Assembly: GCA_030390025.1 (NCBI GenBank)
Contig: CM059449.1
Location: 19,902,001-19,966,000 of the forward strand
Source of the DNA: Squalus acanthias
Lineage: Eukaryota
Length of the DNA: 64,000 bases
Direction: 5' to 3'
Each line of letters starts with the position of its first letter. Position 1 is the first letter of the stretch. A program made the position numbers and the translations under genes. This document shows positions 133 to 63,600 of this stretch, one piece after another. Below the pieces are notes generated by a model, which saw only the letters and a list, made by a program, of their open reading frames with translations, had not been told where the DNA came from and did not search any database.

Positions 133-1850
133 TATATGATAAACACATGGGAGTATGATATTGTTGCTATTACAGAGACATGGTTGAGGGAGGGGCAGGA
201 CTGGCAGCTCAATATTCCGGGGTATAGAATCTTCAGACAAGACAGAGGGGGGTGTAAAAGAGGACGGGGTGTCGCAATATTAATCGAGGAGTCAATTACT
301 GCATAAGGAGGGATGATATCTTAGCAGGTTCCTCTAATGAGGCCATATGGGTAGAACTTAAAAACAAAAAGGGGGCAAGCACTTTGCTGGGAGTGTACTA
401 TAGGCCCCCAAACAGTCAGGGGGAGATAGAGGAACAGATATGTAGGCAAATCTCAGAGAAGTGTGGTAATAATAGTAGGGGATTTCAACTTCCCCAATAT
501 TAACTGGGACAGTCAGAGTGTGAAAGGCTTAGAGGGTGCAGAATTCTTAAAGTGCATCCAGGAGAGCTTTTTGAGCCAGCATGTAGAAAGTCCTACAAGA
601 GAGGGGGCGGTACTAGACCTAATTCGAGGGAATGTAGCCGGGCAAGTGGTAGAAGTGTCAGTAGGAGAGCATTTTGGTGACAGTGACCATAATTTTAGTG
701 AGATTTAAGGTAGTCATGGAAAAGGACAAAGATGGACCGGAAATAAAGGTTCTAAATTGGGGGAAGGCCGATTTTAATATGATAAGGCAGGATCTGGCCA
801 AAGTGGACTTGGGATCAGCTACTTGTAGGAAAATCCACATCAGAGCAGTGGGAGTCTTTCAAAAAGGAAATAGAGAGAGTACAACGCCAACATGTTCCCG
901 GAAAGGTCAAGGGTGGGACCAACAAGCCCAGGGAACCCTGGATGTCAAGGGATATACAAGAATGGATTAGGAAAAAAAGGGAGGCTTTTGGCAGGTACAA
1001 AGGACTAAAAACAGTGGAAGCCCTAGAGGAGTATAGAAAGTGCAGGGGGGTACTTAAAAAAGAAATTAGGAGAGCGAAGAGGGGGCATGAAAAAACACTG
1101 GTGGGCAAAATAAAGGAAAATCCCAAGGTGTTTTATAAGTATATTAAGGGCAAGAGGATAACCAGGGAAAGAGTAGGGCCCATTAGGGACCAAAGTGGCA
1201 ATCTGTGTGTAGAGCCAGAAGATGTACGTGAGGTTTTAAATGAATATTTTGCATCTGCGTTCACTATGGAGAAGGATGATGTCGGCATAGAAATCAGGCA
1301 GGGGGATTGTGATATACTTGAACAAATTAGTATTGAGAGGGAGGAGGTACTAGCGGTTTTAGCGGGCTTAAAATTGGATAAATCCCCAGGCCCTGACGGG
1401 ATGTATCCCAGGCTGCTGTGTGAGGCAAGGGAGGAGATTGCAGGGGTTCTGACACAAATTTTCAGAACGTCTCTGGCCACAGGGGCGGTGCCAGAGGACT
1501 GGAGGACAGCTAACGTAGTACCATTATTCAAGAAGGGTAGTAGGGATAAACCAGGGAATTACAGGCCAGTAAGCCTAACATCAGTGGTAGGGAAATTATT
1601 GGAAAAAATTCTGAGGGACAGAATTAGTCTCCACTTCGAGAGGCATGGATTAATCAAGGATAGTCAGCATGGCTTTGTCAGGGGGAGATCATGTCTGACC
1701 AATTTGATTGAATTTTTTGAGGGGGTGACTATGTGCGTGGATGAGGGTAGTGCAGTTGATGTAGTCTACATGGACTTCAGTAAGGCTTTTGACAAAGTCT
1801 TGCATGGGAGACTGGTCAAGAAGGTAAGAGCCCATGGGATCCAGGGCAAT
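133..1850 (+). mobile_element. CR1/HER1-type LINE, subfamily A copy 1, 5' part (APE endonuclease to RT N-half; degraded)
   Basis: YDIVAITETWL, GDFN, SDH and KSPGPDG..NYRPVSLTS motifs with stops and frameshifts. Interrupted at 1850 by a younger CR1. Confidence 0.95.
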
Positions 1851-2456
1851 GTCGGGGGGGATGACTCATCGGGGGAAGGCACCAGCAGCCAGGCTCATGG
1901 CACCATGACTGGCTCTGTTGCAAAGAAGGGAGGGAAAAAGAGTGGCAGGGCTATAGTAATAGGGGATTCGATTGTAAGGGGAATAGATAGGGGTTTCTGT
2001 GGTCGCGACCGAGACTCCAGGATGGTATGTTGCCTCCCTGGTGCAAGGGTCAAGGATGTCTCGGCGCGGGTGCAGAACATTCTGGAGGGGGAGGGGGAAC
2101 AGCCAGTTGTCGTGATACATGTTGGTACCAACGACGTAGCTAAAAAAAGGGAAGAGGTCCTACAAGTAGAATTTAGGGAGTTAGGAGCCAAGCTAAAAAG
2201 TAGGACCTCGAAGGTAGTAATCTCTGGATTACTACCAGTGCCACGTGCTAGTAAGAGTACAGAGAACAGGATAGTTAGGCTAAATACGTGGCTTGAGCAG
2301 TGGTGTAAGAGGGAGGGTTTTAAATTTTTGAGGCATTGGAACCAGTTTTGTGGTAGGTGTGACCTATACAAAAGGGACGGTCTACACCTGTGCAAAGATG
2401 GAACTGATGTTCTCGGGGTAATTTTTGATAAAGCAGTTCGGGAGCATTTAAACTAG
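1851..2456 (+). CDS. CR1 ORF1 C-terminal SGNH/GDSL-type esterase domain (5'-truncated)
   Basis: VIGDS, CLPGA, HVGTND and DGLHL blocks; ends REHLN*. Confidence 0.9.
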   Translation, partial: VGGDDSSGEGTSSQAHGTMTGSVAKKGGKKSGRAIVIGDSIVRGIDRGFCGRDRDSRMVCCLPGARVKDVSARVQNILEGEGEQPVVVIHVGTNDVAKKREEVLQVEFRELGAKLKSRTSKVVISGLLPVPRASKSTENRIVRLNTWLEQWCKREGFKFLRHWNQFCGRCDLYKRDGLHLCKDGTDVLGVIFDKAVREHLN

Positions 2457-5395
2457 TATGGCAGGGGGCTAGAAACCTATGTAGTGAAATAGAGGAAAGT
2501 GAAAGGCAGACAGAAATAAATGGTAAAAGGGTGAGGAACAAAAAACAAAGGGCCAAACCAATTCATAAAAAATGTGAGCATAAAAAAAGCCTGAGGGTTT
2601 TATACCTTAATGCGAGAAGCATCAGGAACAAGGTAGATGAATTAGCTGTGGAAATAGAGGTTAATAATTATGATCTAATTGGGATTACGGAAACATGGTT
2701 GCAGGGTGAGCAGGGCTGGGAGCTTAACATACAGGGGTATTCAGTATTTAGGAAGGATCGACAAAAAAGAAAGGGAGGAGGGGTAGCATTGCTGGTAAAA
2801 GGGATAAATGCAATTGAAAGGAAGGATATTAACTCAGTTAATACAGAATCTATATGGGTGGAGCTAAGAAATAGCGAGGGGCGAAAAACATTAATAGGAG
2901 TGGTATATAGGCCTCCAAATAGTAAAATAGAGGTTGGGGAGGGCATCACGAGGGAAATTAGAGAAGCGTGCAATAAGAGCACAGCTGTCATCATAGGTGA
3001 CTTTAACTTACATATAGATTGGAATAGCCTAATCAGTAAAAATAATGAGGAGGAGGAATTCCTTGAGTGTTTAAGGGATGGTTATCTGGATCAATATGTC
3101 GAGGAACCAACTCGGGAACAGGCTATATTGGACTGGGTACTGTGCAATGAGAAGGGACTAATTAGTAATCTTGTTGTACGGGGACCCTTGGGTCAGAGCG
3201 ATCATAACATGATCGATTTCTCACTCGAAATGGAGAGCGAAGAAATTGACTCAGATACTAAGGTCCTGAATTTAAACAAGGGGAATTATGATGCCATTAG
3301 ACGGGAACTGAGTAGGTCTGATTGGACAACGTTCCTGGGAGGACTGGAGGTAGATAAACAATGGCAAGCATTTAAAGATAGAATGACAAAATTGCAAAAA
3401 TTGTTTATACCAATCTGGCATAAAAGGAAATCTAAAAAGGTGACTCAACCGTGGATAACAGGGGAAATTAGAGACAGCATAAAATCCAAAGATAGGGCGT
3501 ATAAAATAGCCAAAAAAAGCGCCAGAGCGGAAGATTGGGAACAGTTTAAGATAGAGCAAAGGAGGACAAAGGGCTTAATCAAGAGGGGCAAAATAGCTTA
3601 CGAAAGCAAGCTGGCGGAAAATATAAAAACTAACTCCAAAAGCTTTTATAAGTATATCAAGAGGAAAAGACTGGTGAAAACCAAAGTTGGCCCATTGCAG
3701 TCAGATACGGGGGAATATATAACGGGAAATAAGGAAATGGCAGACCAACTAAATGCATACTTTGGGTCAGTCTTTACGAAGGAAGACACAAAAAACCTCC
3801 CTGGGATATCGGGAAAAATAGGGACATTTGCAAAGGAGGAACTGACGCAAGTCAATATCTCTAAGGATATGGTGTTAAGGAAGCTAAAGGGATTGAAGGC
3901 GGACAAATCCCCAGGGCCTGATAACATGCATCCTAGGGTGCTGAAGGAGGTGGCCCTAGAGATAGCGGATGCACTAAGTATGATTTTTCAGAATTCATTA
4001 GACTCGGGAACAGTGCCCATGGATTGGAGGGTAGCTAACGTTACCCCACTATTCAAAAAGGGGGGTAGGGAAAAAGCAGGTAATTACAGACCTGTAAGCC
4101 TTACATCAGTTGTGGGCAAAATGCTGGAGTCCATCATTAAGGATGAAATAGCGGAGCACTTAGCAAATGGGGACAGGATAGGACAGAGTCAACATGGATT
4201 TACAAAGGGTAAATCGTGCTTGACTAATCTATTGGAATTTTTTGAGGGAGTAACTGGTAAAATAGATGGGGGAGAGCCAGTAGATGTGGTGTACCTGGAC
4301 TTCCAAAAGGCCTTCGATAAGGTCCCACATAAAAGATTAGCAGGGAAAATTGAAGCTCATGGGATAAAGGGGAAAGTATTGACGTGGATAGAGAACTGGC
4401 TGTCAGATAGAAAACAGAGAGTTGGAATAAACGGCTCATTTTCTGAATGGCAGGCAGTAACAAGTGGGGTACCACAGGGATCTGTCCTGGGTCCCCAGCT
4501 GTTCACAATTTACATTAATGACCTGGATCAGGGAGTCGGATGCAGCATTTCCAAATTTGCAGACGACACTAAACTAGGAGGGGGGGTGGGCTCAGAGGAG
4601 GAGACCAGGAAGCTCCAGAGCGATTTGGACAGACTGGGTGATTGGGCGGATAAATGGCAGATGCACTATAATGTGGACAAGTGCGAAGTTATCCACCTTG
4701 GGTGCAGGAACGGGAGGGCAAATTATTATTTAAATGGCAATAAATTGGGAGAGGGGGAAGTACAGAGAGACCTGGGTGTTCTTGTACACCAGTCACTGAA
4801 GGCGAGCATGCAGGTGCAACAGGCGATCAAGAAGGCAAACGGTATGCTGGCCTTCATAGCAAAAGGGTTGGAATACAGGAACAGGGATACCTTGCTGCAG
4901 CTGTACAGGGCACTGGTGAGACCACACCTCGAGTACTGTGTACAGTTTTGGTCGCCTCATCTGAGGAAAGATGTTCTTGCCATGGAGGGGGTGCAGCGGC
5001 GATTCACCAGGCTGATACCAGGAATGGCGGGATTGACCTATGAGGAGAGACTATGTAGTTTAGGGATGTACACACTGGAGTTTAGAAGATTGAGAGGGGA
5101 CCTCATAGAAGTGTATAAAATTCTGACAGGTCTAGACAGACTAGATGCAGAAGGGATGTTTCCCTTGGCGGGTGAGAACAGAACTAGAGGACATAATTTA
5201 AGGATAAGGGCTAAACCATTTAGGACAGAAATGAGGGGGAATTTCTTCACTCAGAGGGTGGTGAACCTGTGGAACTCATTGCCACAGAGGGCAGTGTACG
5301 CCAGCTCATTAAATATATTTAAGAGGGAATTAGATATATTTCTACAGGCAAAAGGGGTTAAGGGTTACGGAGAGAAGGCGGGGACGGGATACTGA
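2447..5395 (+). CDS. CR1 ORF2, APE endonuclease plus reverse transcriptase, uninterrupted
   Basis: Stop-free frame from 2447 (the ORF track starts at GTG 2531). YLNARS, ETWL, GDFN, SDH, QGSVLGP and FADD motifs. First in-frame ATG is at 3209. Confidence 0.95.
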   Translation, partial: FKLVWQGARNLCSEIEESERQTEINGKRVRNKKQRAKPIHKKCEHKKSLRVLYLNARSIRNKVDELAVEIEVNNYDLIGITETWLQGEQGWELNIQGYSVFRKDRQKRKGGGVALLVKGINAIERKDINSVNTESIWVELRNSEGRKTLIGVVYRPPNSKIEVGEGITREIREACNKSTAVIIGDFNLHIDWNSLISKNNEEEEFLECLRDGYLDQYVEEPTREQAILDWVLCNEKGLISNLVVRGPLGQSDHNMIDFSLEMESEEIDSDTKVLNLNKGNYDAIRRELSRSDWTTFLGGLEVDKQWQAFKDRMTKLQKLFIPIWHKRKSKKVTQPWITGEIRDSIKSKDRAYKIAKKSARAEDWEQFKIEQRRTKGLIKRGKIAYESKLAENIKTNSKSFYKYIKRKRLVKTKVGPLQSDTGEYITGNKEMADQLNAYFGSVFTKEDTKNLPGISGKIGTFAKEELTQVNISKDMVLRKLKGLKADKSPGPDNMHPRVLKEVALEIADALSMIFQNSLDSGTVPMDWRVANVTPLFKKGGREKAGNYRPVSLTSVVGKMLESIIKDEIAEHLANGDRIGQSQHGFTKGKSCLTNLLEFFEGVTGKIDGGEPVDVVYLDFQKAFDKVPHKRLAGKIEAHGIKGKVLTWIENWLSDRKQRVGINGSFSEWQAVTSGVPQGSVLGPQLFTIYINDLDQGVGCSISKFADDTKLGGGVGSEEETRKLQSDLDRLGDWADKWQMHYNVDKCEVIHLGCRNGRANYYLNGNKLGEGEVQRDLGVLVHQSLKASMQVQQAIKKANGMLAFIAKGLEYRNRDTLLQLYRALVRPHLEYCVQFWSPHLRKDVLAMEGVQRRFTRLIPGMAGLTYEERLCSLGMYTLEFRRLRGDLIEVYKILTGLDRLDAEGMFPLAGENRTRGHNLRIRAKPFRTEMRGNFFTQRVVNLWNSLPQRAVYASSLNIFKRELDIFLQAKGVKGYGEKAGTGY

Positions 5396-5487
5396 ATTGG
5401 AGGATCAGCCATGATCTCATTAAATGGCGGAGCAGGCTCGAAGGGCCGGATGGCCTACTCCTGCTCCTATCTTCTATGTATCTATGT

Positions 5488-6585
5488 AATTTGACACATT
5501 GGATCCAAAATTGGCTTAGTGGCAGGAGGCAGAGGGTGATGGTCGAAGGTTGTTTTTGTGACTGGAAGCCTGTGTCCAGTAGTGTACCGCAGGGATCGGT
5601 GCTGGGTCTTTTGCTGTTTGTAGTGTACATTAATGATTTAGATATGAATGTAGGAGGTATGATCAATAAGTTCGCAGATGACACGAAAATTGGTGGAGTG
5701 GTAAATAGCGAGGAGGGAAGCCTCAGGCTACAGGATGATATAGACGGGTTGGCTAGATGGGCAGAACAGTGGCAAATGGAATTTAACCCTGAAAAGTGTG
5801 AGGTGATGCATTTTGGGAGGACTAACAAGGCAAGGGAATACACAATGAATGGTAGGACCCTAGGAAGGACAGAGGATCAGAGGGACCTTGGTGTGCATGT
5901 ACATAGATCTCTGAAGGCAGCAGGACAGGTAGATAAGGTGGTTAAAAAGGCATATGGGATACTTGCCTTCATTAGCCGAGGCATAGAATATAAGAGCAGG
6001 GAGGTTATGATGGAGCTGTACAAAACGCTAGTTAGGCCACAGCTGGAATACTGTGTGCAGTTCTGGTCGCCACACTATAGGAAGGATGTGATTGCATTGG
6101 AGAGGGTGCAGAGGAGATTCACCAGGATGTTACCTGGGCTGGAGCGCTTCAACTATGAAGAGAGACTGGACAGGCTGGGGTTGTTTTCCTTAGAGCAGAG
6201 AAGGCTGAGGGGTGGACCTAATTGAGGTGTACAAAATTATGAGGGGCATAGATAGGGTAGATAGAAAGGAACGTTTCCCCTTAGTAGAGGGGTCAATAAC
6301 CAGGGGGCATAGATTCAAGGTAAGGGGCAGGAGGTTTAGAGGGGATTTGAGGAAAAACTTTTTCACCCAGAGGGTGGTTGGAATCTGGAACTCACTGCCT
6401 GAAAGGGTGGTAGAGACAGGATCCCTCACAACATTCAAGAAGCATTTAGATGAGCACTTGAAACGCCATAGCATACAAGGCTACGGACCAAGTGCTGGAA
6501 AATGGGATTAGAATAGACAGGGCTTGATGGCCGGCGCGGACACGATGGGCTGAAGGGCCTCTTTCTGTGCTGTATGACTCTATAT
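5488..6585 (+). mobile_element. CR1 subfamily A copy 1, 3' part (RT C-half, 3' UTR, tail)
   Basis: Continues the host RT exactly where 1850 stops (GIQGN|LTHWIQNWL); ends GPSAGKWD*; GACTCTAT tail. Confidence 0.95.
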
Positions 6586-8877: not shown

Positions 8878-9049
8878 ACAGCTGAGCCCAACCTTGTCCA
8901 TCCCCCCAGTGTCCACTCCCTCACTTTCCAATAGGGCAGGGAGAGGGGCGGTCACTTGATACCGATCAGAAGCGGGAGCCTGAATTTTGATTATGGGTCT
9001 GTATTTCAGTGACAACTTTAGCTAAGAAGCCAGAGTTAGGCCCTCTTAA

Positions 9050-12000
9050 AAAAGCAGGACCTCAAAGGTTGTAATCTCTGGATTACTCCCGGTGCCACGT
9101 GCTAGTGAGTAGAGGAATAGGAGGATAGAGCAGATGAATGCGTGGCTAAAGAGTTGTTGCAGGAGGGAGGGCTTTAGTTTCCTGGATCACTGGGTCTGCT
9201 TCTGGGGAAGGCGGGACCTGTACAAGTTGGACGGGTTGCACCTGAACCGGAACAGGACCAACAGCCTTGCGGGGAGGTTTGCTAGTGCTGTTGCGGGGGC
9301 TTTAAACTAACTTGGCAGGGGAATGGGATACGGAGTGGAGCTATAGTAGGGGGTGATGCACAGCCAAATATAGAGGAAAAAACAAGTCAGCCTGGAAGGC
9401 AGAGCAAATATGTAACGGCACAAGTGAGTATGGCAAGGCTGGATGGCGTTTATTTTAATGCAAGGAGTCTTGCGAGTAAGGCAGATGAATTGAAGGTGTT
9501 GATGAACACATGGGAGTATGATATTGTTGCTATCGCAGAGACATGGTTGAGGGAGGGGCAGGACTGGCAGCTCAATATTCCGGGGTATAGAATCTTCAGC
9601 CGAGACAGAGGGGGGTGTAAAAGAGGAGGGGGTGTCGCAATATTAATGAAGGAGTGAATTACTGCTGTAAGGAGGGATGATATCTTAGCAGGTTCCTCTA
9701 ATGAGGCCATATGGGTAGAACTTAAAAACAAAAAGGGGGCAAGCACTTTGCTGGGAGTGTATTATAGGCCCCCAAACAGTCAGGGGGAGATAGAGGAACA
9801 GATATGTAGGCAAATCTCAGAGAAGTGTAGAAATAATAGGGTAATAATAGTAGGGGATTTCAACTTCCCAATATTAACTGGGATAGTCAGAGTGTGAAAG
9901 GCTTAGAGGGTGCAGAATTGTTAAAGTGCATCCAAGAGAGCTTTTTGAGCCAGCATGTGGAAAGTGCTACAAGAGAGGGGGCGGTACTGGACCTAATTCT
10001 AGGGAATGTAGCTGGGCAAGTGGTAGAAGTGTTAGTAGGAGAGCATTTTGGTGACAGTGACCATAATTCGGTGAGATTTAAGATAGTCATGGAAAAGGAC
10101 AAAGATGGACCGGAAATAAAGGTTCTAAATTGGGGGAAGGCCGATTTTAATATGATAAGGCAGGATCTGGCCAAAGTGGACTGGGATCAGCTACTTGTAG
10201 GAAAATCCACATCAGAGCAGTGGGAGTCTTTCAGAAAGGAAATAGAGAGAGTACAACGCCAACATGTTCCCGTAAAGGTCAAGGGTGGGACCAACAAGCC
10301 CAGGGAACCCTGGATGTCAAGGGATATACAAGAATGGATTAGGAAAAATATGGAGGCTTTTGGCAGATACAAAGGACTAAAAACGGTGGAAGCCCGAGAG
10401 GAGTATAGAAAGTGCAGGAGGGTACTTAAAAAAGAAATTAGGAGAGCGAAGAGGGGGCATGAAAAAACACTGGTGGGCAAAATAAAGGAAAATCCCATTG
10501 TGTTTTATAAGTATATTAAGGGCAAGAGGATAACCAGGGAAAGACTAGGGCCCATTAGGGCAATCTGTGTGTAGAGCCGGAAGATGTAGGTGAGGTTTTA
10601 AATGAATATTTTGCATCTGTGTTCACTAAGGAGAAGGATGATGTAGGCATGGAAATCAGGCAGGGGGAGTGTGATATACTTGAACAAATTAGTATTGAGA
10701 GGGAGGAGGTACTAGCGGTTTTAGCGGGCTTAAAAGTGGATAAATCCCCAGGCCTTGACGAGATGTATCCCAGGCTGTTGTGTGAGGCAAGGGAGGAGAT
10801 TGCAGGGGCTCTGACACAAATTTTCAGAACCTCTCTGGCCACGGGAGGTGCCAGAGGACTGGCGAACAGCTAACGTAGTACCATTATTCAAGAAGGGTAG
10901 TAGGGATAAACCAGGGAATTACAGGCCAGTGAGCCTAACATCAGTGGTAGGGAAATTATTGGAAAAAATTCTGAGGGACAGAATTAGTCTCCACTTGGAG
11001 AGGCAAGGATTAATCAAGGATAGTCAGCATAGCTTTGTCAGGGAGATCATGTCCAACCAATTTGATTGAATTTTTCGAGGGGGTGACTAGGTGTGTGGAT
11101 GAGGGTAGTGCAGTTGATGTAGTCTACATGGACTCCAGTAAGGCTTTTGACAAAGTCCCGCATGGGAGACTGGTCAAGAAGGTAAGAGCCCATGGGATCC
11201 AGTGCAATTTGGCACATTGGATCCAAAATTGGCTTTGTGGCAGGAGGCAGAGGGTGATGGTCGAAGGTTGTTTTTGTGACTGGAAGCCTGTGTCCAGTGG
11301 TGTACCGCAGGGATCGGTGCTGGGTCCTCTGCTGTTAGTAGTGTACATTAATGATTTAGATATGAATGTAGGAGGTATGATCAATAAGTTCGCAGATGAC
11401 ACGAAAATTGGTGGAGTGGGAAATAGCGAGGTGGGAAGCCTCAGGCTACAGGATGATATAGACGGGTTGGCTAGATGGGCAGAACAGTGGCAAATGGAAT
11501 TTAACCCTGAAAATTGTGAGGTGATGCATTTTGGGAGGACTAACAAGGCAAGGGAATACACAATGAATGGGAGGACCCTAGGAAGGACAGAGGATCAGAG
11601 GGATCTTGGTGTGCATGTACATAGATCCCTGAAGGCAGCAGGACAGGTAGATAAGGTGGTTAAAAAGGCATATAGGATACTTGCCTTCATTAGCCGAGGC
11701 ATCGAATATAAGAGCAGGGAGGTTATGATGGAGCTGTACAAAATGCTAGATAGGCCACAGCTGGAATACTGTGTGCAGTTCTGGTCGCCACACATGTGAT
11801 TGCATTGGAGAGGGTGCAGAGGAGATTCACCAGGATGTTACCTGGGCTGGAGCGCTTCAGCTATGAAGAGAGACTGGACAGGCTGGGGTTGTTTTCCTTA
11901 GAGCAGAGAAGGCTGAGGGGGGACCTGATTGAGGTGTACAAAATTATGAGGGGCATAGATAGGGTAGATAGAAAGGAACTTTTCCCCTTTGTAGAGGGGT

Positions 12001-12292
12001 CAATAACCAGGGGGCATAGTTTCAAGGTAAGGGGAAGGAGGTTTAGAGGGGATTTGAGGGAAGAAAAATTCACCCAGAGGGTGGTTGGAATCTGGAACTC
12101 ACTGCCTGAAAGGGTGGTAGAGGCAGGAACCCTCACAACATTCAAAAAGCATTTAGATGAGCACTTGAAACGCCATAGCATACAAGGCTACGGACCAAGT
12201 GCTGGAAAATGGGATTAGAATAGACAGGGTTTCATGGCCAGCGTAGACACGATGGGCCGAAGGGCCTCTTTTTGTGCTGTACGACTCTATGA
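9050..12292 (+). mobile_element. CR1 subfamily A copy 2 (ORF1 end through ORF2 to tail; degraded)
   Basis: VVISGLLPVP..DGLHL..ALN* followed by APE-RT with stops and small deletions; highly similar to copies 1 and 3. Confidence 0.95.
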
Positions 12293-14618: not shown

Positions 14619-17600
14619 AAAAGCATAGACGACCGTCCACCTTTAATTCGGTTCCAATCTGCCACGTTGTTCACAGTTTGACCCACCCTCCTGTTAGCAA
14701 GTATAAGCGACAGCTGCCGTGTAGGAAGTGAAATATGACTGTGTACATTGCAGTAAACTGACATTGTTCCATGATCGCTCTCCCCAGCAACTACACTCTT
14801 CACACGTCATCCTGATATACGAGCACAAATGCAAATATTTGCACAGAACACTCCGCTCCCAGGCACATGAAAAACAAGAAAGTCAAGCATGAGCGGGCAA
14901 GCCATTCTGTCCATCCAAGCTCATCCCAGAGTGCTCCAACTCACCCAGGGCCCCCTCAAGCGCTGCAACTCCTCCGAAACCTCATTTCAAATGTTTCTCA
15001 CCCTTTGACTCAGATCTCTTCTAAACATATCGCAGTAGACAAACAGTTCCGCGCTCCCAGGCACATCAGATAACAGAGGAGCCCGCTGCGGTTTAAAGGG
15101 TCTCGGGCACTGCGGGGAGTGATGTTTAAAGGGTCCCGACTGCTGCACTGAGTGCGGTTAAAGGGATTTGGTGGGTGCAGCTAAAAGGGTCGCACACGTA
15201 GATAAATAAAGTTTCAAGGGTTTTGGATTGGGTGGGGGGGGGGTGGTGGGCGTAGGGAGTTTGGCTTAAAGGGTCTCAGACACAGGGGTGGGCGGGGGTT
15301 AAAAGCGAGGCCTTGGATAGATGAGCTGGGATGAGCCGAATGGCGTTACTCATCGTAATATCCAAATTTGCCGATGACGCAAAGATAGTGTAGATGAAGA
15401 CATACAATTACAAAGAGCTATTGATAGATTACGTAAATGGGTAAAACTGTGGCAAATGAATTTCAAGGAAAGCAAATGTGAGGTCATCCACTTTGGACCT
15501 AAAAAGGATAGAACAGGGTACTTTCTAAATGGTAAAAAGCTAAAAACAGTGGATGTCCAAAGAGACTTGGGGGTTCAGGTGCATAGATCATTAAAATGTC
15601 ATGAACAGGTACAGAAAATAATCAAAATGGTTAATGGAATGCTGGATAACCAGGGAAAGAGTAGGGCCCATTAGGGACCAAAGTGGTAATCTGTGTGTAG
15701 AGCCGGAAGATGTGGGTGAGGTTTTAAATGAATATTTTGCATCTGTGTTCACTATGGAGAAGGATGATGTAGGCATAGAAATCAGGCAGGGGGATTGTGA
15801 TATACTTGAACAAATTAGTATTGAGAGGGAGGAGGTGCTAGCGGTTTTAACGGGCTTAAAAGTGGATAAATCCCCAAGCCCAGACAAGATGTATCCCAGG
15901 CTGCTGTGTGAGGCAAGGGAGGAGATTGCAGGGGCTCTGACACAAATTTTCAGATCCTCTCTGGCCACAGGGGAGGTGCCAGAGGACTGGAGGACAGCTA
16001 ACATAGTACCATTATTCAAGAAGGGTAGTAGGGATAAACCAGGGAATTACAGGCCAGTGAGCCTAACATCAGTGGTAGGGAAATTATTGGAAAAAATTCT
16101 GAGGGACAGAATTAGTCTCCACTTCGAGAGGCAAGGATTAATCAAGGATAGTCAGCATGGCTTTGTCAGGGGGAGATTATGTCTAACCAATTTGATTGAA
16201 TTTTTCGAGGGGGTGACTAGGTGCGTGGATGAGGGTAGTGCAGTTGATGTAGTCTACATGGACTTCAGTAAGGCTTTTGACAAAGTCCCGCATGGGAGAC
16301 TGGTCAAGAAGGTAAGAGCCCATGAGATCCAGGGCAGTTTGGCACATTGGATCCAAAATTGGCTTAGTGGCAGGAGGTAGAGGGTGATGGTCGAAGGTTG
16401 ATTTTGTGACTGGAAGCCTGTGTCCAGTGGTGTACCGCAGGGATCGGTGCTGGGTCCTTTGCTGTTTGTAGTGTACATTAATGATTTAGGTATGAATGTA
16501 GGAGGTATGATCAGTAAGTTCGCAGATGACAAGTCGTGGTACACATCGGTACCAACGACATAGGTAGGAGAAGAGACGGGGATTTAAAACAGGAATTTAG
16601 GGAGCCAGGTTGGAAGCTGAGAGCCAGTACAAACCATGTTGTAATTTCTGGTTTGTTGCCGGTGCCACGTGCTAGCGAGTTGAGGAACAGGGAGAGAGTG
16701 CAGATAAACACGTGGCTGCAGGGATGGTGTAGGGGGGGAGGGTTTCAGTTATGTGGATAATTGGAGCACATTCTGGGGAAGGTGGGACCTGTACAAACAG
16801 GACGGTTTGCACCTGAACCAGAGGGGCACCAATATCCTGGGAGGGAAATTTGCTACGGCTCTTCGGGAGGGTTTAAACTAATTTGTCAGGGGGATGGGAA
16901 AAAGGGCTGTGGTCCACGAGCCAGTGGTGAGTGTAGGGAGGTACTGAGGAGGGTATCAAGGTCGCAGGAATGTACCGGCAGACAGGAAGATGGCTTGAAG
17001 TGTGTCTACTTCAATGCAAGGAGCATCCGGAATAAGGTAGGAGAACTTGGAGCGTGGATTGGTACTTGGGACTACGATGTGGTGGCCATTACGGAGACAT
17101 GGTTAGAACAGGGACAGGAATGGTTGTTGGAAGTTCCGGGGTATAGATGTTTCAGTAAGAGTAGGGAAGTTGGTAAGAAAGGTGGAGGAGTAGCATTGTT
17201 AATCAAGGATAGTTTAACAGCGGCAGAAAGGCAGTTCGAGGGGGATCTGCCGTCTGAGGTAATATGGGCTGAAGTTAGAAATAGGAAAGGAGCGGTCACG
17301 TTGTTAGGAGTTTTCTACAGGCCCCCAAATAGTAATAGAGATGTGGAGGAAGAAATTGCAAAGCAGATTATGAATAGGTGTGGAGGTCACAGAGTAGTTG
17401 TCATGGGTGACTTCAACTTTCCAAATATTGATTGGAACCTTTATAGGTCAAACAGTTCGGATGGGATAGTTTTTGCACAGTGTGTGCAGGAGGGTTTCCT
17501 GACACAATATGTGGATAGGCCGACAAGAGGTGGGGCCACGTTGGATTTGGTACTGGGTAATGAACCGGGCCAAGTGTTTGATTTGTATGTGGGAGAGCAC

Positions 17601-18808
17601 TTTGGAGATAGTGACCACAATTCGGTAACTTTCACTATTGCAATGGAGAGGGATAGGGCCATACGGCAGGGCAGGGTTTATAATTGGGGGAGGGGTAATT
17701 ATGATGCGATTAGGCAAGAATTAGGGAGTATAAGATGGGAACAGAAACTATCAGGGAAAGGCACAAACGAAAAGTGGAGCTTTTTCATGCAGCAATTACT
17801 GCGTGTCCTTGATAGGTATGTCCCTGTCAGGCAGGGAGGAAATGGCCGAGTGAGAACCATGGTTCACAAAAGAGGTTGAATGTCTAGTCAAGAGGAAAAA
17901 GGAAGCGTATGTAAGGATGAGAAAACAAGGTTCAGTTGGGTCGATTGAGGGGTACAAGGTAGCAAGGAATGAGCTAAAAAAAGAGCTTAGGAGAGCTAGG
18001 AGGGGGCATGAGAAGTCCTTGGCGGGTCGGATCAAGAAAAACCCCAAGGCTTTTTACTCTTATGTGAGAAATAAAAGAATGACCAGGGTGAGGGTAGGGC
18101 CGGTCAAGGACAGTAGTGGGAACTTGTGCATGGAGTCAGAAGAGATAGGAGAGGTGATGAATGAATACTTTTCGTCAGTGTTCACCGAGGAGAGGGGCCA
18201 TGTTCTTGAGGATGAGAGTGTGATAAAGGTGGATAGGCTGGAGGTGGTAGATGTTCTGAGGGAAGATGTTTTAGCAATTTTGAAGAACCTGAGGGTCGAT
18301 AAGTCCCCTGGGCCAGATGGGATATATCCTAGGATTCTTTGGGAGGCAAGGGAAGAGATTGCAGAGCCTCTGGCTTTGATCTTTGGGTCCTCACTGTCCA
18401 CGGGGATGGTGCCAGAGGACTGGAGAGTGGCGAATGTTGTTCCTCTCTTCAAGAAAGGAAATAGGAATGACCCTGGTAATTATAGGCCGGTTAGTCTTAC
18501 TTCGGTGGTTGGTAAGATAATGGAAAAGGTCCTGAGGGATAGGATTTATGACCATTTGGAAAGGGGCAACTTAATCAGGGATAGTCAACACGGATTCGTG
18601 AAGGGTAAGTCTTGCCTAACAAATTTGATTGAATTCTTTGAGGAGGTAACTAAGTGTGTAGATGAAGGTAGAGCAGTTGATGTTGTATACATGGATTTTA
18701 GTAAGGCGTTTGATAAGGTTCCCCATGGTCGTCTCATGAAGAAAGTAAGGAGTTGTGGGATAGAGGGAAATTTGGCCGATTGGATAAGTAACTGGCTATC
18801 TCATAGAA

Positions 18809-19182
18809 TTGAGAGGTCGCACAACACCAGGTTATAGTCCAACAGTTTTATTTGAAATCACAAGCTTTCGGAGCTATCGATTGCCCCTTCCTCGGCTCAA
18901 AGTGGAGAGAATCGCCAAGAAGATCGCGCATATCGACACCGACATCAAGTATCTACAGAGATGCAAGAAAGCAGTAGTGGTCTGCAATTGTAAGGTACAC
19001 ATGCTTTGTTCTCTATCTATATATGCTTTGGCGATTCTGTATCTAATTTACTTCACCTGAGGAAGGGGCAATCGATAGCTCCGAAAGCTTGTGATTTCAA
19101 ATAAAACTGTTGGACTATAACCTGGTGTTGTGCGACCTCTCAATTTTGTCCACCCCAGTCCAACACCGGCATCTCCGCATCA
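18809..19182 (+). mobile_element. Penelope-like non-autonomous mini-element (inverted pLTR, short ORF remnant, pLTR)
   Basis: 12-bp TSD TATCTCATAGAA (18797-18808 / 19183-19194); 87-bp perfect inverted repeat 18807-18893 / 19059-19145; hammerhead core; AATAAA at 19100. Confidence 0.85.
19053..19094 (+). ncRNA. Minimal type I hammerhead ribozyme motif (Penelope type)
   Basis: TCAC-CTGAGGA-A-GGGGC(AATCGATA)GCTCC-GAA-AGCT-T-GTGA: stem I TCAC/GTGA, stem II GGGGC/GCTCC, palindromic stem III AGCT. Confidence 0.75.
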
Positions 19183-21355
19183 TATCTCATAGAAGGCAGA
19201 GGGTGGTGGTGGATGGAACATTTTCGGACTGGAGACCAGTTACCAGCGGTGTGCCACAGGGGTCGGTGCTGGGTCCTCTGCTGTTTGTGATTTTTATCAA
19301 TGACTTGGAGGAGGGGACTGAAGGGTGGATCAGTAAATTTGCTGATGACACCAAGATTGGTGGAGTAGTGGATGAGGTGGAGGGCAGTTGTAGGCTGCAA
19401 AGCGACATTGATAGGATGCAGAGCTGGGCCGAAAAATGGCAGATGGAATTTAACCCTGATAAGTGCGAGGTGATTCATTTTGGTAGGGCAAATTTGAATA
19501 AGGATTACAGGGTCAACGGCAGGGTTCTGAGGAACGTGGAGGAGCAGAGGGATCTGGGGGTTCATATCCACAGATCTCTGAAGGTTGCCACTCAAGTGGA
19601 TAGAGCAGTAAAGAAGGCCTATGGTGTGTTGGCGTTTATTAACAGAGGGTTTGAGTTTAAGAACCGTGAGGTTATGCTGCAACTGTACAGGACCTTGGTG
19701 AGACCACATTTGGAATATTGTGTGCAGTTCTGGTCACCTCACTATAGGAAGGACGTGGAAGCATTGGAAAGAGTGCAAAGGAGATTTACCAGGATGCTGC
19801 CTGGTTTGGGGGGGAGGTCTTATGAGGAAAGATTGAGGGAGTTGGGGCTTTTCTCTTTAGAGCGGAGGAGGATGAGAGGCGACTTAATAGAGGTTTATAA
19901 GATGATGAGGGGGATAGATAGAGTGGATGTTCAGAGACTATTTCCTCGGGTAGAGGCAGCTGTTACAAGGGGGCATAACTATAAGGTGCATGGGGGGAGA
20001 TATAGAAGGGATGTCCGAGGTAGATTCTTTACTCAGAGAGTGGTTGGGGTGTGGAATGGACTGCCTGCTGTGATAGTGGAGTCGGACACTTTAGGAACTT
20101 TCAAGCGGTTATTGGATAAGCACATGGAGCACACCAGAGTGATAGGGAGTGTGATAGCTTGATCTTGGTCTCGGACAATGCTCGGCACAACATCGAGGGC
20201 CGAAGGGCCTGTACTGTGCTGTACTGTTCTATGTATCTATGTATCTATGTATGACACAAAAATTGGTGGAGTGGTAAATAGCGAGGAGGGAAGTCTCAGG
20301 CTGCAGGACGATATAGACGGGTTGCTTCGATGGGCAGAACAGTGGCAAATGGAATTTAACCCTGAAAAGTGTGAGGTGATGCATTTTGGGAGAACTAACA
20401 AGGCAAGGGAATACACAATGAATGGTAGGACCCTAGGAAGGACAGAGGATCAGAGGGACCTTGGTGTGCATGTACATAGATCCCTGAAGGCAGCAGGACA
20501 GGTAGATAAGGTGGTTAAAAAGGCATATGGGATACTTGCCTTCATTAGCCGAGACGTAGAATATAAGAGCAGGGAGGTTATGATGGAGCTGTACGAAACG
20601 CTAGATAGGCCACAGCTGGAATACTGTGTGCAGTTCTGGTCGCCACACTATAGGAAGGATGTGATTGCATTGGAGAGGGTGCAGAGGAGATTCACCAGGG
20701 TGTTACCTGGGCTGGAGCGCTTCAGCTATGAAGAGAGATTGGACAGGCTGGGGTTGCTTTCCTTAGAGCAGAGAAGGCTGAGGGGGGACCTGATTGAGGT
20801 GTACAAAATTATAAGGGGCATAGATAGGGTAGATAGAAAGGAACTTTTCCCTTAGTAGAGGGGTCAATAACCAGGGGGCATAGTTTCAAGGTAAGGGGCA
20901 GGAGGTTTAGAGGGGATTTGAGGAACAACTTTTTCACCCAGAGGGTGGTTGGAATCTGGAACTCACTGCCTGAAAGGGTGGTAGAGGCAGGAACCCTCAC
21001 ATTTAAGAAGCATTTAGATGAGCACTTGAAACGCCATAGCATACAAGGCTACGGACCAAGTGCTGGAAAATGGGATTAGAATAGATAGGGCTTGATGGCC
21101 GGCGCAGACACGATGTGCCGAAGGGCCTCTTTCTGTGCTGTATAACTCTATGACCTTTATATCTAGAGGACTAGAGTACAAGGGGGTGGAAGTTATGCTG
21201 CAGCTGTACAAAACTCTGGTTAGACCACACCTGGAGTAATGTAAGCAATTCTGGGCACCACACCTTCGGAAGGATATATTGGCCTTGGAGGGAGTGCAGC
21301 GTAGGTTTACCAGAATGATACCCAGACTTCAAGGGTTAAGTTACAAGGAAAGATT

Positions 21356-36721: not shown

Positions 36722-38500
36722 CACACTCATTCGCTACAGTTACATAAGAACATAAGAAATAGGAGCAGGAGTAGGCCAATCGGCCCCTCAAGCCTGCTCC
36801 GCCATTCAATAAGATCATGGCTGATCTGATCCTAACCTCAAATCTAAAGAACACAAGAAGTAGGAGTAGGACCCGGCCACTCAGCCCCTGGGCCCGCTCC
36901 GCCACCCACAGGGCCCTGACCGATCCGAACTCAGCCTCATGTCCAATTTCCTGCCTGCTCACCGTAACCCCTAATTCCCTTTGCCTCTAGGAAACTATCT
37001 ATTTCTGTTTTAAATTTATTTAATGATGTAGCTTCCCCAGCTTCCTGGGGCAGCAAATTCCACAGACCTTCTACCCTCTGAGTGAAGAAGTTTCTCCTCA
37101 TCTCAGTTTTGAAAGAGCAGCCCCTTATTCTAAGATTATGCCCCCTAGTTCTAGTTTCACCCATCCTTGGGAACATCCTTACCGCATCCACCCGATCAAG
37201 CCCCTTCACAATCTTTTATATTTCAATAAGATCGCCTCTCATTCTTCTGAACTCCAATGAGTAGAGTCCCAATCTACTCAACCTCTCCTCATATGTCCAC
37301 CCCCTCATCCCCGGGATTAACTGAGTGAACCTTCTTTGTACTGCCTCGAGAGCAAGTATGTCTTTTCTTAAGTATGGACACCAAAACTGTACGCAGTATT
37401 CCAGGTGCGGTCTCATCAATACCTTATATAACTGCAGCAATACCTCCCTGTTTTTATAATCTATCCCCCTAGCAATAAAAGCCAACATTCCGTTGGCCTT
37501 CTTGATCACCTGCTGCACCTGCATACCAACTTTTTGATTTTCTTGCACTAGAACCCCCAGATCCCTTTGTACTGCAGTACTTTCCAGTTTCTCTCCATTA
37601 AGATAATAACTTGCTCTCTGATTTTTCCTGCCAAAGTGCATAACCTCACATTTTCCAATATTGTATTGCATCTGCCAAATCTCCGCCCACTCACCCAGCC
37701 TGTCTATATCCCCTTGTAGGTTTTTTATGTCCTCCTCACTTTCTACTTTCCCTCCCATCTTTGTATCATCTGCAAACTTTGATATGTTACACTCGGTCCC
37801 CTCCTCCAAATCGTTAATATAGATTGTAAAGAGTTGGGGACCCAGCACCGACCCCTGCGGAACACCACTGGCTACTGGTTGCCAGTCCGAGAATGAACCA
37901 TTTATCCCAACTCGCCGCTTCCTGTTAGATAACCAATCCTCCACCCATGCCAAAATATTCCCCCCAATCCAGTGATTTTTTATCTTGAGCAATAATCTTT
38001 CATGTGGCACCTTGTCGAATGCCTTCTGGAAGTCTAAATACACTACGTCCACTGGTTCCCCTTTATCCACCCTGTACGTTATGTCCTCAAGGAACTCAAG
38101 CAAATTTGTCAGACATGACTTCCCCTTCATAAAGCCATGCTGACTTTGTCCTATTAAATTATGTTTATCTAAATGTTCCGTTACTGTCTCCTTAATAATA
38201 GACTCCAAAATTTTACCCACCACAGATGTTAGGCTAACTGGTCTATAATTTCCAGCCTTCTGCCTACTACCCTTTTTAAATAAGGGTGTTACATTAGCAG
38301 TTTTCCAATCTGCCGGGACCTTTGCTGAGTCCAGGGAATTTTGGAAAATTATTACCAAAGCATCCACAATCCCTACTGCCACTTCCCTCAAGACCCTAGG
38401 ATGTAAGCCATCAGGTCCAGGGGATTTATCCGCCTTGAGTCCCATTATTTTACTGAGTACCAATTCCTTAGTGATTTTAATCGTATTTAGCTCCTCCCCC
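36722..38500 (-). mobile_element. CR1, RT through 3' end, with a doubled 3' terminal module
   Basis: 415-aa RT ORF 37216-38463 and a frameshifted C-terminus; two stem-loop/tail units at 36722-36845 and 36846-36940. Confidence 0.93.
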
Positions 38501-39824
38501 CCCCCCTAGAGCCCCCTGTTTCCTCTATGTTAACAATTAACTTCATCTGGCTGTTTTAATGGGGAAAAGAGACATTATTTAAAGCTGCAGATCCCACATT
38601 CATTCCAAATAATTCAAACCTTTGGTAATGGAAGTGCCAATTAGTCATGGTGCATCATGCGGTGACTACTCCAAAGACTCTCAGTGGTGAGGTTTCTAAC
38701 ACTAACACAAAGCTGCTGATTTCCTCATTTGTTTCCTTTTAATGTGCATGAACTCTGTTCCCATATCTTGGGGCGGTGGGGAGGATTTCTAATACTCGTC
38801 TCACACTTCATACAAGAAAAAGTATGTTATCGGATCACCAACCTCTAATTTCCAACTTGTCCGGTCTCTTCCTATTTTATCGATACGACTGTACAGTGCC
38901 TTCTCATGTTCCTCCTAAGCTCCAAAGAATCAGTCTTCCTTCTTCCTCACTGTGTTGTAATCATCACACTCTTCTACTCTTAACTCATTCTTTTTCAGAA
39001 CCTGAAAACTATGGCGCTCCTTTCCTCCCTCAGCCTTCCCTTCCTCCTACAATCTACAGTGAGAATAAAAACCTACACTTGACATTGTCTAACCACGGCT
39101 TCCTGATTAACCTTGTCTTCTCTTCTGCTCTTTCCAGCCACGGTGGACTTTGGTCCTTCACCTGGGTTACTCAGTGAACAATAACAAGATGGAGATGTAC
39201 AGTCCTGGTATCTAACTGTGACTCTAATCTCCTATTTCTTTTACTCTATTTCCCTTTCAGCCAGTTTCTCCCATCTCCCCACTGAGGCCTCCAAGCAGCA
39301 CAAAGCAACCCCAGCCACGAGCACAGATGGCTAAGCTTCTCCCAGCTTCTGTCAATGCCCCGTTAAAGCTGCTCCAGGCTGTACCTGAGAGCTGCCTGGG
39401 ATTGATTCTCCATCCAATTTTCTTCCTTCCTGCCCTCTGAGGAATTGCTTGGCCGGGTCTCCTCGGGGAAGATCTGCAGAATTAAAAGTCAGCCAGTTGA
39501 GAATCAGAGACCTGAACCCAGATCTACCAGTTGCATGACGCACTAAACAAATTTTGAGAATGGATCTCAGGTGCAACTCTTAACAAGATTAATTCTGGCT
39601 GTACCATGCGTGGATTGAAGCACACTCTAGCAAACTGTGCAACCCTGTCATGAAAGTAGCTTTAAACATGACTGTCTGCTTTTAAGTGTTTGCATTTGTC
39701 CTAGCCACATGCTTGTGTCTGCTGAGCATTGTTCTCTGGCGCCTGTATCCGGTTTGCATTGCATCATTCCCAAGATGGATTTTGGCAACACACTGTTTCC
39801 AAAGCAGCACCCTTACTCTAATTC

Positions 39825-45634: not shown

Positions 45635-48600
45635 GTGTCAGCTGTGGCTCAGTGGGTAGCACTCCACCCTCTGGGTCAGAAGGTTGTGGGTTCAAGTCCC
45701 ACTCCAGAGACTTGAGCACAAAAATCTAGGCTGACACACCCAGTGCAGTACTCGGGGAGTGCAGTACTCAGGGAGGGCTGCACAGTCGGAGGTGCTGTCT
45801 TTTGGATGAGACACTAAACCCATGCCCCGGCTGCTATCTCAGGTGGACGTAAGACATCCCATGGCGCTTTTTCAAAAAAGAGCAGGGGAATTATCCCCCG
45901 GTGTCCTGGCCAATATTTATCCCTCAAGCAACATAGCAAAAAACAGATTGCTTGGTCATTCTCACACTGCTGTTTGTGGGAGCTTGCTGTGCGCAAATTG
46001 GCTGCCGCGTTTCCTACATTAGAGGAAAAAGACTGCAGGGAGGATGGGCAAACTGACCACGGAACTGTGGTACAGGGGGCCATCCAAGGGGGGGGAGAAG
46101 GAAGGAATGTGGTAGTAGTAGGGGACAGTATAGTCAGGGGGATAGATACTGTTCTCTGCAGCCGCGAAAGAGAGTCCCAAAGGCTGTGTTGCCTGCCCGG
46201 TGCCAGGGTTAAGGATATCTCCTCGCGGCTGGAGAAGAACTTGGAGTGGGAGGGGGAGGATCCAGTTGTCATGGTCCATGTAGGAACCAACGACATAGGC
46301 AGAACTAAGAATGAGGTTCTGCTGAGGGAGTTTGAGGAGCTAGGGTCTAAATTAATAAGCAGAACCACAAGGGTAATAATCTCTGGATTACTACCTGAGC
46401 CACGCGCAAATTGGCATAGGGTCAAGCAGATCAGAGAGTTAAATGCGTGGCTCAAAGAGTGGTGTGGGAAAATGGGGATTCCACCAGTATTGGGGAAAGA
46501 GGGAGCTGTTCCCTCGGGACGGGCTCTACTTAAACCGGGCTGGGACCAGCATCCAGGCGAATCAAATAACTAGGGCTGTAGATAGGGCTTTAAACTAAAA
46601 AAGGGGGGGGGGAGGAGTCAGGTGAGGGGAAATTTAAAAATCTAAAGAGAAAGGTCAAGGCAAAAGAGCATTGTAGCGATTTGGGTAAAAATAAGCAGAG
46701 TGTGACAGGAAGGGACAGAGAGTTTAATGGTAGCAGTGCAGCAGAGAATAAGGTCAAAGCAGGGAATAATGGTAAAAAAATTAAATTAAAGGCTCTTTAA
46801 CTGAATGCATGAAGCATTCGTAGCAAGATAGACAAACTAGTGGCACAAATAGAGATAAATGGGTTTGATCTAATAGCCATTACAGAGACAAGGTGGCCAA
46901 GGTTGGGAACTAAATGTTCCAGGGTACTTGACGTTTCGAAAAGACAGGCAGAGTAGCCCTGATAATAAAGGATGACATAAGGACAGTATCGAGAAAGGAT
47001 CTCGGCTCGGAAGATCAGGAAGTAGAATCATTATGGGTGGAGATAAGGAATAACAAGAGGCAGAAAACACTGTTTGGAGTAGTATATAGGCCCCCTAACA
47101 GCAGCTATACCATTGGACAGAATATTAATCAAGAAATAGTAGGAGCTTGCAACAAAGGTAATGCAATAATCTTGGGGGAGTTTAATCTTCATATAGACTA
47201 GACAAATCAAATTGGCAAAGGTAGTCTGGAGGACGAGTTTATGGAATGCATTCGGGACAGTTTCTTCGAACAATATGTCATGGAACCAACCAGGGAACAG
47301 GCTATTTTAGATCTTGTATTGTGTAATGAGACAGGGTTAATTAGCAATCTCATAGTAAAGGATCCTCTGGGGCAGAGTGATCATAATATGATAGATTTTC
47401 ACATTAATTTTGAAAGTGACTTGCCTAAGTCCAAAACTAGAGTCTTAAACTTAAATAAAGCCAATTACATAGGTATGAGGGGCGAGTTGGCTAAGGTAGA
47501 TTGAAAAAATAGATTAAAAAGTATGGCGGTAGAGAAGCAGTGGCTAGCATTTAAAGAAATATTTCACAAAAATAAATTTTATTGAGAAACAAAAACTCCA
47601 CAGAAAAAGTGATCCAACCGTGGCTAACTAAAGAAGTTAAGGATAGCATTAGATTGAAAGAAGCAGCTTATAATGTTGCAAAGAATAATAGTAAGCCTGA
47701 GGATTGGGAGAGTTTCAGAAATCAGCAAAGGTTGACCAAAAAATTGATAAAAAGGGAAAAAATAGAATGAGAGAAAACTAGCAAGAAATGTAAAAGCAGA
47801 CTGTAAGAGTTTCTACAAGCATATAAAAAGGAAAAGAGTAGCAAAAGTAAACATTGGTCCATTAGAGGCTGAGATAAGGGAAATTATTATGGGGGTTTAG
47901 GAAATGGCAGAAACGTTAAACAAATATTTTGTATCTGTCTTCACAGTAGAAGCACACCAAAAATGGTGAGGAACCAAGGGTCTAATGAGGGTGAGGAACT
48001 TAACGTAATTAATATAAGTAGAGAAAAAGTACTAGAGAAACTAATGGGACTAAAAGCCGACAAATCCGCTGGACCTGACAGCTTACATCCTAGAGTTCTA
48101 AAAGAGGTGGCTGAAGAGATACTGGATGCATTGGTTTTGATCTTCCAAAATTCCCTAGACTCTGGAATGGTCCCAGTGGATTGGAAGGTTGCAAATGTAA
48201 CACCGCTATTCAAGAAAGGAGGGAGAGAAAAAACAGGGAACTACAAGCCAGTTAGCCTGATATCAGTCGTCGGGAAAATGCTGGAATCCATTGTTAAGGA
48301 AGTGGTATCAAGTCACTTAGAAAATCATAACATGATTAGGCAGAGTCAACATGGTTCTATGAAAGGGAAATCGTGTTTGACAAATTTATTAGAGTTTTTT
48401 GAGGCTGTAACTAGCAGGGCAGATAAAGGGGAACCAGTGGATGCAGTATATTTGGATTTCCAAAAGGCATTCGATAAGGTGCCACATAAAAGGTTATTAC
48501 ACAAGATTAGGGCTCAAGGGGTTGGGGGTAATATAGTAGCATAGATAGAGGATTGGTTAACGGACAGAAAACAGAGAGTAGGGATAAACGGATCTTTTTC

Positions 48601-62914: not shown

Positions 62915-63600
62915 TTCCTTCTTTTACATCTCTACATTTCTCACAGAAAAAGACTTCAGGGATATTAGACTTTGGGATTTTGGCACAAGAACCGGCAGAT
63001 ACAGGTGTTCCGCTGGTTACATTCAGTCATCGGACTGCCTGCAAAGGGCTTCTGACAATAACATGTCACCAGGTCCCACCAGTCGCCATCTGCTTCCACC
63101 ATCATATCTTCATCCATTACCCGCCTTTCGCCTTCACTGGAGCAAGTTTCACCATCATAACCATTCCCCATACTGAGATTCTCTGAATCTCAATTGATAC
63201 TCAGTGTAAGTGACCCCTGGATTTGGTCTCACACTGTAAGTGGTCCCTGCATTTGGTCTCAGGGTGTAAGGGGTCCTTGGATTTAGTCTCTCGATGTAAG
63301 TGGTCCCTGGATTTGGTCTCAGGGTGCAAGTGGTCCCTGGATTTAGTCTCAGGGTGCAAGTGGTCCCTGGATTTGGTCTCAGAGAGGAATCTCGCAGTCA
63401 CCACCTCCTCATTCCAGTCCGCTTCACTCATCCAGCTGTTCATCTTTTTCTCAGCTACTTCATTTGCCAGCCTTAGCGTTTTGCTCCTTTTAATGTGGGC
63501 GAAGCGGGACCTCTCCCCGTCAAACGCTGTCTGCTTTTCCATTTCCCTGCTCCAATTTTTATCAGCAGCTATATCTAACTTTGATCGGTTTAAACACAAA
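62915..63600 (-). pseudogene. PHF23: PHF23-like (PHF13/PHF23 family) PHD-finger pseudogene, probably processed
   Basis: [43 protein letters not shown]..(frameshift)[20 protein letters not shown]; upstream DGERSRFAHIKRSK; Zn-ligand substitutions and a frameshift. The 5' limit is uncertain. Confidence 0.85.
63205..63381. repeat. 30-bp tandem repeat, about 6 copies
   Basis: TG(T/C)AAGTGGTCCCTGGATTTGGTCTCAGGG; reads ETKSRDHLHP on the minus strand. Confidence 0.95.

Follow-up and report, generated by a model that had tools for sequence, protein, structure and literature searches.

A candidate programmed −1 ribosomal frameshift site at the ORF1/ORF2 junction of CR1 retrotransposons in Squalus acanthias

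RESULTS

A young CR1 copy and its ORF1/ORF2 junction

We analysed 64,000 nucleotides (nt) of the Squalus acanthias genome (assembly GCA_030390025.1, contig CM059449.1, positions 19,902,001 to 19,966,000 of the forward strand; hereafter the window), and in particular the junction between the two open reading frames (ORFs) of a long interspersed nuclear element (LINE) that we take to be a CR1 element. Its ORF1 protein is separate from the L2-like DGxHP proteins and clusters with those of reptiles and birds, and its nearest named relatives are from sharks and rays. An ORF2 with endonuclease (APE) and reverse transcriptase (RT) domains, 5′ truncation and a short-repeat 3′ tail were all found in the CR1 copies. 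The copy under study, a member of what we call family A, occupies 1850..5488 on the + strand. It is young and 5′-truncated, 99.4% identical over 3642 columns to the full-length locus L301, and interrupts an older family-B copy, whose two pieces (137-1850 and 5488-6394) are 96-97% identical to the family-B locus L303.

The 3′ part of ORF1 (1854..2456, +) encodes an SGNH/GDSL esterase (Pfam Lipase_GDSL_2, E 1.3e-11). In intact family-A copies the full ORF1 has 315 amino acids (aa), and CxxC pairs, an N-terminal Cys motif, are present in full-length copies. A preliminary description of this DNA, made from the sequence alone, proposed a −1 frameshift at the end of ORF1. Direct reading confirms its starting points: ORF1 ends with CAT TTA AAC TAG (2444-2456), giving a C-terminal His-Leu-Asn, and the heptamer T_TTA_AAC (2447..2453, +) stands in X_XXY_YYZ phase with ORF1. 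The stop TAG (2454..2456, +; TAA or TAG in other families) abuts the 3′ side of the heptamer. Downstream are the G-rich tract GGCAGGGGG (2460..2468, +), a candidate stimulator, and a variable basic linker (2457..2590, +) in which only the −1 frame is free of stops.

Measured between stops, the open −1 frame covers 987 codons (2432-5395) and contains the APE and RT domains; ORF2 counted from the heptamer spans 2447..5395 (+). As had been described, this frame runs without a stop into ORF2, whose first AUG comes after the SDH motif of the endonuclease: the AUG, at 3209, is codon 254 counted from the heptamer, and SDH (3197-3205) corresponds to codons 250-252. The Asn of the endonuclease NARS motif is at 2609, and the RT domain lies at about 4064-4696. 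Across the final 100 ORF1 residues, identity is 100% in every one of the 150 best genome matches (family A), and the −1 frame is open to the locus end in 19 of the 30 family-A loci fetched.

Two further features belong to this element. A 556-codon ORF at 786-2456 is a chance in-frame chimera of the family-B host RT and the truncated family-A ORF1, joined at about 1850. The family-A 5′ untranslated region (UTR), as seen in L301 (about 970-1350 and 1500-1620), contains tandem 83-nt repeats; between these and ORF1 lie an AG in a pyrimidine-rich context and two motifs resembling GT donors.

The heptamer is conserved at the end of ORF1 in the window and across families

The 10-mer TTTAAACTAR, i.e. 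the heptamer and the adjoining stop, occurs four times in the window (2447, 9301, 16872 and 46589), always on the + strand, where 0.41 occurrences are expected; four matches were reached in none of 100 shuffles of the window. Each match is the end of a CR1 esterase ORF1 (Leu-Asn-stop) and each is followed by a G-rich tract, so that both the recurrence and the tract reported in the preliminary description hold for all four copies. The −1 frames that it had read in two of them were also recovered. In the family-B copy at 9049-12101, the heptamer with TAA (9301..9310, +) leads into FKLTWQG, and an in-frame AUG at 9430 lies 9 codons ahead of the APE Asn. In the young family-C copy (16526-18816 and 19183-20249), the heptamer with TAA (16872..16881, +) leads into FKLICQG, and there is no AUG before the endonuclease, the first being inside it at 17370. 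The last match, also with TAA (46589..46598, +), belongs to a decayed copy of cluster 5 whose register is not assignable. It had been described as off by one base within a homopolymer; the APE start on the + strand, which follows a long run of G, is indeed read in a different frame, and a homopolymer origin of the offset is plausible.

To extend the comparison to the whole genome, junctions were collected with ORF1 queries ending short of the motif and with patterns for the catalytic DGLHL motif (19,950 and 12,995 matches, versus 421 and 160 for controls). Only the family-A query included the ORF1 end (final HLN); it accounts for 30 of the 266 junctions, and none of the remaining ones was retrieved through the motif. 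Targeted searches took the place of random sampling, which over 200 kb had given a single new junction; alligator and distant YLN queries recovered family B only. The 266 junctions, among which a few loci are duplicated, formed 22 linker clusters, of which 16 were taken as families, the remainder being broken singletons.

The exact 10-mer was present in 219 of the 266 junctions, over 16 families of this one genome. When the commonest codon of each family is considered, the base before the Leu codon is T in 16/16, across Gly, His, Thr, Ala and Asp codons; Leu is TTA in 16/16 and Asn is AAC in 15/16. Four other invariant ORF1 leucines use 4, 6, 3 and 4 codons, with TTA in 3/63. The commonest stop is TAA in eight families, TAG in seven and TGA in none, while one two-copy family has TGG. 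Invariance of the heptamer at synonymous positions, which the preliminary description had put forward as a test, thus came out as predicted in the 16 families.

ORF2 is in a fixed −1 register across linkers of different lengths

A second proposed test concerned the register of ORF2 over linkers that cannot be aligned with one another. The modal distances from the heptamer to the APE Asn in 12 families are 162, 156, 141, 204, 180, 219, 171, 198, 156, 186, 213 and 171 nt, that is ten different lengths between 141 and 219 nt, all of them multiples of 3. The −1 register is firm in families A (28/31), B (69/94), C (31/33), E (22/24) and 10 (3/3), and thinly documented in the others; for family 13 it was read in one of two copies, the tie being broken in favour of the open copy. 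Frames 0 and +1 of the linker contain a median of 2-10 stops per family. The fixed −1 register was therefore found as predicted in the 12 families. Shuffling gave probabilities of 0.001-0.06 per family for an open linker, values that are illustrative only since the copy was chosen for its openness. A −1-frame stop seen in 2/3 family-9 copies proved to be a private change, as CAG is present in 98 of the first 100 of 786 matches. Zero-frame readthrough was rejected, frame 0 of the linker having a median of 2-8 stops.

Start codons show no comparable regularity. The first AUG lies 201 (family A), 119 (C), 12 (13) and 77 (20) codons past the APE Asn, and families A and C, which have no AUG before the endonuclease, are young and intact. 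In the remaining families the first AUG is found at scattered upstream places, and no AUG is common to all. An in-frame AUG near the stop is the commonest codon in 1/12 shark families at codons 4-5, and in one more at codon 8; the other shark families lack it.

The ORF1 end in bird-like loci and in other species

Twenty loci were returned when metagenomes were scanned with an amniote alignment; they are called bird-like here because the query groups with a swallow protein. Thirteen end before the ORF1 end and seven were examined, of which L284 stops just short. TTTAAACTAG is present in 6/6 bird-like loci reaching the ORF1 end, and the −1 frame is open into APE in four of them, over 117-270 nt. 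Further locus searches found no shark-type loci.

At the protein level, LN is the C-terminal end in 99 of 198 ORF1 homologues reaching the profile end, from sharks to birds. A codon ending in T is possible for the residue before LN in 98/99, while E, Q and K fill the positions before that residue. Named carriers of LN are rays, an eel, squamates (a snake and lizards), turtles, an alligator and a swallow, and the stingray gene model P0035 reads FKL through the linker into APE. The site extends beyond the families first described, to bird-like CR1 and, at the protein level, across jawed vertebrates. Among distant proteins without LN, 12/39 have heptamer-compatible tripeptide ends (10 xGN and 2 SKN), versus 3.3% of control windows, and several others have FF, GF or FL close to the end; L2-like DGxHP proteins show no excess (2/44, versus 4.3% in the control). 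Gene models with tails of more than 16 residues (17/198) were left out of the tripeptide count. In a quick midpoint-rooted tree, these C-terminal ends of the distant proteins alternate within one 22-row clade.

Two side observations concern these ends. In 15 shark families and 6 bird-like loci ORF1 stops at TAA or TAG; TGA, although it would keep the −1-frame Leu, is not used. Protein P0009, 58% identical to the present ORF1 and ending in GLN, is labelled Pseudomonas aeruginosa at NCBI and is probably a host contamination.

A G-run follows the heptamer

A run of at least 4 G starts 9-13 nt past the heptamer in 19 of 21 representatives, and at +11 in 12. A two-tier G-quadruplex (G4) was predicted in the folds of 9/21 representatives. 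In the −1 frame, GGG occupies codon 7 in 10 and codon 9 in 9 of 12 shark families, and both codons in 5/5 bird-like loci; GGG represents 34/85 Gly codons in the family-A ORF2. The excess of GGG at these two codons suggests an element acting at the nucleotide level. A weak recurring duplex with the CCLPGA-coding stretch (4/9 elements) was set aside as protein-constrained.

Other features of the window

Young copies (A and C) are nested in older family-B copies twice, at 137-6394 and 15644-20965. Other long stop-to-stop frames are found at 37216-38505 (−, 429 codons), 39686-41683 (+, 293 + 371) and 61673-62923 (−, 416); the segment 40088-41421 matches the flank of locus L304 at 93%.

DISCUSSION

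A proposed −1 frameshift as the route to CR1 ORF2

Judged by comparative sequence, the CR1 junction signal is real, deeply conserved and of the recoding type. We propose, with a probability of roughly three in four, that it directs a programmed −1 frameshift leading to an esterase-APE-RT fusion protein. Most ribosomes would terminate at the stop and release the 315-aa ORF1 protein. Some would slip back by one base on U_UUA_AAC, through tandem slippage of tRNA-Leu (UUA to UUU) and tRNA-Asn (AAC to AAA), and would then translate ORF2. The family-A junction would read ..H-L-N-L-V-W-Q-G.. and the predicted esterase-linker-APE-RT fusion would be of ∼1,296 aa (315 + 981). Slippage would thereby fix a high ratio of ORF1 protein to RT, as for gag-pol. 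The least certain part is the stimulator, which, instead of a hairpin or pseudoknot, may be the G-run found 9-11 nt downstream acting together with slow termination at the abutting stop; the G-run could act as a two-tier G4 or as a protein-bound tract.

A broader proposal, which we hold tentatively and at somewhat less than even odds, is that every CR1 lineage with an esterase ORF1, invertebrate-type elements as well as those of sharks, reptiles and birds, obtains its RT by −1 frameshifting in a fusion comparable to gag-pol, and has exchanged the heptamers U_UUA_AAC, G_GGA_AAC and A_AAA_AAC in the course of evolution. The stimulator in vertebrates would then be of a new type, the abutting stop plus a G-run about 10 nt downstream, without hairpin or pseudoknot.

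Comparison with known systems

Mammalian L1, Zorro3 and SART1 resemble CR1 in having a bicistronic LINE RNA and a low level of ORF2, and the bird-like CR1 elements add to this an AUG beside the stop. For SART1, a UAAUG coupling reportedly serves a separate ORF2 initiation. In L1 and Zorro3 the ORFs do not overlap and ORF2 has an AUG, unlike CR1 (PMC1965478). The putative CR1 site also resembles coronavirus (infectious bronchitis virus, U_UUA_AAC) and retroviral gag-pol sites, with the same heptamer, the same phase relative to the upstream ORF and the polymerase in the −1 frame (PMC5009743). CR1 differs from them in that the host of the signal is a retrotransposon without long terminal repeats (non-LTR), that the stop abuts the heptamer, and that a G-run is present with no conserved hairpin. 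The Dictyostelium elements TRE5-A and TRE3-A are APE-type non-LTR retrotransposons stated to need a −1 frameshift for ORF2 (PMC5911963); they belong to another clade and have an unrelated ORF1, and the CR1 site, by contrast, is conserved from sharks to birds.

Precedents also exist for the putative stimulators. Shifting by −1 is stimulated when a synthetic G4 stands 5-8 nt past UUUAAAC (PMC3919603), whereas at most a two-tier G4 is predicted in CR1. The arterivirus nsp1beta and PCBP are trans-acting proteins that stimulate shifting and can replace structure (PMC5009743), while for the CR1 G-run no binding protein is known. A nearby stop matters at the shift site of pea enation mosaic virus (PMC5009743). 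No report of CR1 frameshifting was found in the full-text literature, whose coverage excludes the founding CR1 papers, so an earlier mention is possible. The term ‘frameshift’ does not occur in the available parts of PMC13343379 and PMC4316615, nor ‘CR1’ in the first two thirds of PMC5009743, and the accessible text of PMC1925062 and PMC4255032 deals with mutational frameshifts only.

Evidence for and against the alternatives

The gag-pol-like fusion put forward in the preliminary description is supported by the comparative tests, with two reservations, the lack of a hairpin and the bird-like AUG by the stop. These and several other observations weigh against it. Where a folded element had been envisaged downstream, no hairpin is shared or conserved over the 90 nt past the heptamer in 21 representatives (z −1.8 to +1.2), the G-run being present instead, and no long-range partner of the G-tract is common to the 9 elements tested. 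The junction would thus work like a −1 site and is not filed in the structure-stimulated class. Several other third positions are likewise invariant across the 16 families, and AAC alone is unremarkable (12/12 at another Asn). As the families are related, the counts are not independent events. Clusters 3, 5, 11 and 12, decayed around the G homopolymer, yield no register; that of families 13, 15 and 20 comes from one copy each, and that of families 6-9 from at most half of the copies. In-frame start codons are also present at some junctions: 4/5 bird-like loci have an AUG (−1 codon 5) only 2 nt past the stop, in shark family 7 the stop and an AUG overlap (TAATG), and the family-B AUG precedes the APE Asn by 9-14 codons. 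The QGN and SKN ends of distant proteins are compatible with G_GGA_AAC and A_AAA_AAC at the level of the protein.

The AUG beside the stop in bird-like loci keeps a stop-restart route alive as a rival or a companion, and the two routes could coexist in birds. Ribosomes would here terminate at TAR and resume nearby, on an AUG or a non-AUG codon, possibly with 40S subunits tethered by the G-run; the product, ORF2p, would not be joined to ORF1p and would carry a disordered N-terminal tail. [quoted passage not shown] However, it leaves unexplained the X_XXY_YYZ synonymous fixation of seven bases 5′ of the stop, as well as the GN and KN protein ends. Furthermore, no start-like codon is common to −1 codons 4/5 in 12 shark families, codon 5 being TGG in eight. 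We regard it as unlikely. It is very improbable, in our view, that Leu-Asn-COOH is simply required by the esterase, with inherited codons, and that ORF2 starts independently from an internal AUG or an internal promoter (TTTAAA as a TATA-like box). In most vertebrate homologues the spacing between the catalytic DxxH and LN is indeed fixed, and AUGs are found 3-14 codons ahead of the APE Asn in families B, 6 and 9. But a protein requirement does not account for TTA at 16/16 here versus 3/63 at other leucines, and LN also closes proteins with longer tails and is replaced by GN and KN. Nor would an independent start preserve an open linker from the heptamer onward, and families A and C lack any AUG before the catalytic APE residues.

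We give almost no credence to translation of ORF2 from a spliced RNA using the AG ahead of the G-run as acceptor. A YAG does precede the G-run in most shark families and splice-like motifs are found in the family-A 5′ UTR, but there is no pyrimidine tract before the AG, family 15 has no such AG, and contigs of three of four runs, whose RNA status was guessed, are collinear across the junction with no joint listed. Copies starting at this AG were sought among the first 100 family-A copies matched 3′ of the G-run start (62 fetched as loci, 2 checked singly and 36 matched by coordinates): 97 keep the heptamer and 3 are 5′-truncated at the G-run, as would suit splicing. The flanks of these three are unrelated, neither of the two flanks compared with the 5′ UTR of the element matches it, and one copy has a 4-nt target duplication, all of which indicates plain 5′ truncations. 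These copies, L349, L350 and L376, are truncated exactly at the G-run (3/100 versus roughly 0.7 expected, by a rough estimate), and a weak reverse-transcription stop at the tract is possible.

Implications

The way in which ORF2 of LINEs is translated has long been an open question, and the usual answer is borrowed, by analogy, from reinitiation in L1. In most vertebrate species the dominant retrotransposon is reported to be the CR1 group (PMC13343379). If the −1 frameshift is correct, the CR1 enzyme would be a fusion with a lipid-binding esterase, and the N-terminus of CR1 ORF2p would have to be redefined, both for annotation and for working CR1 assays. A frameshift would also indicate a stimulator that lacks classical RNA structure, and the cassette, of 30 nt, would give vertebrate nuclear DNA a natural −1 site of great age and very high copy number.

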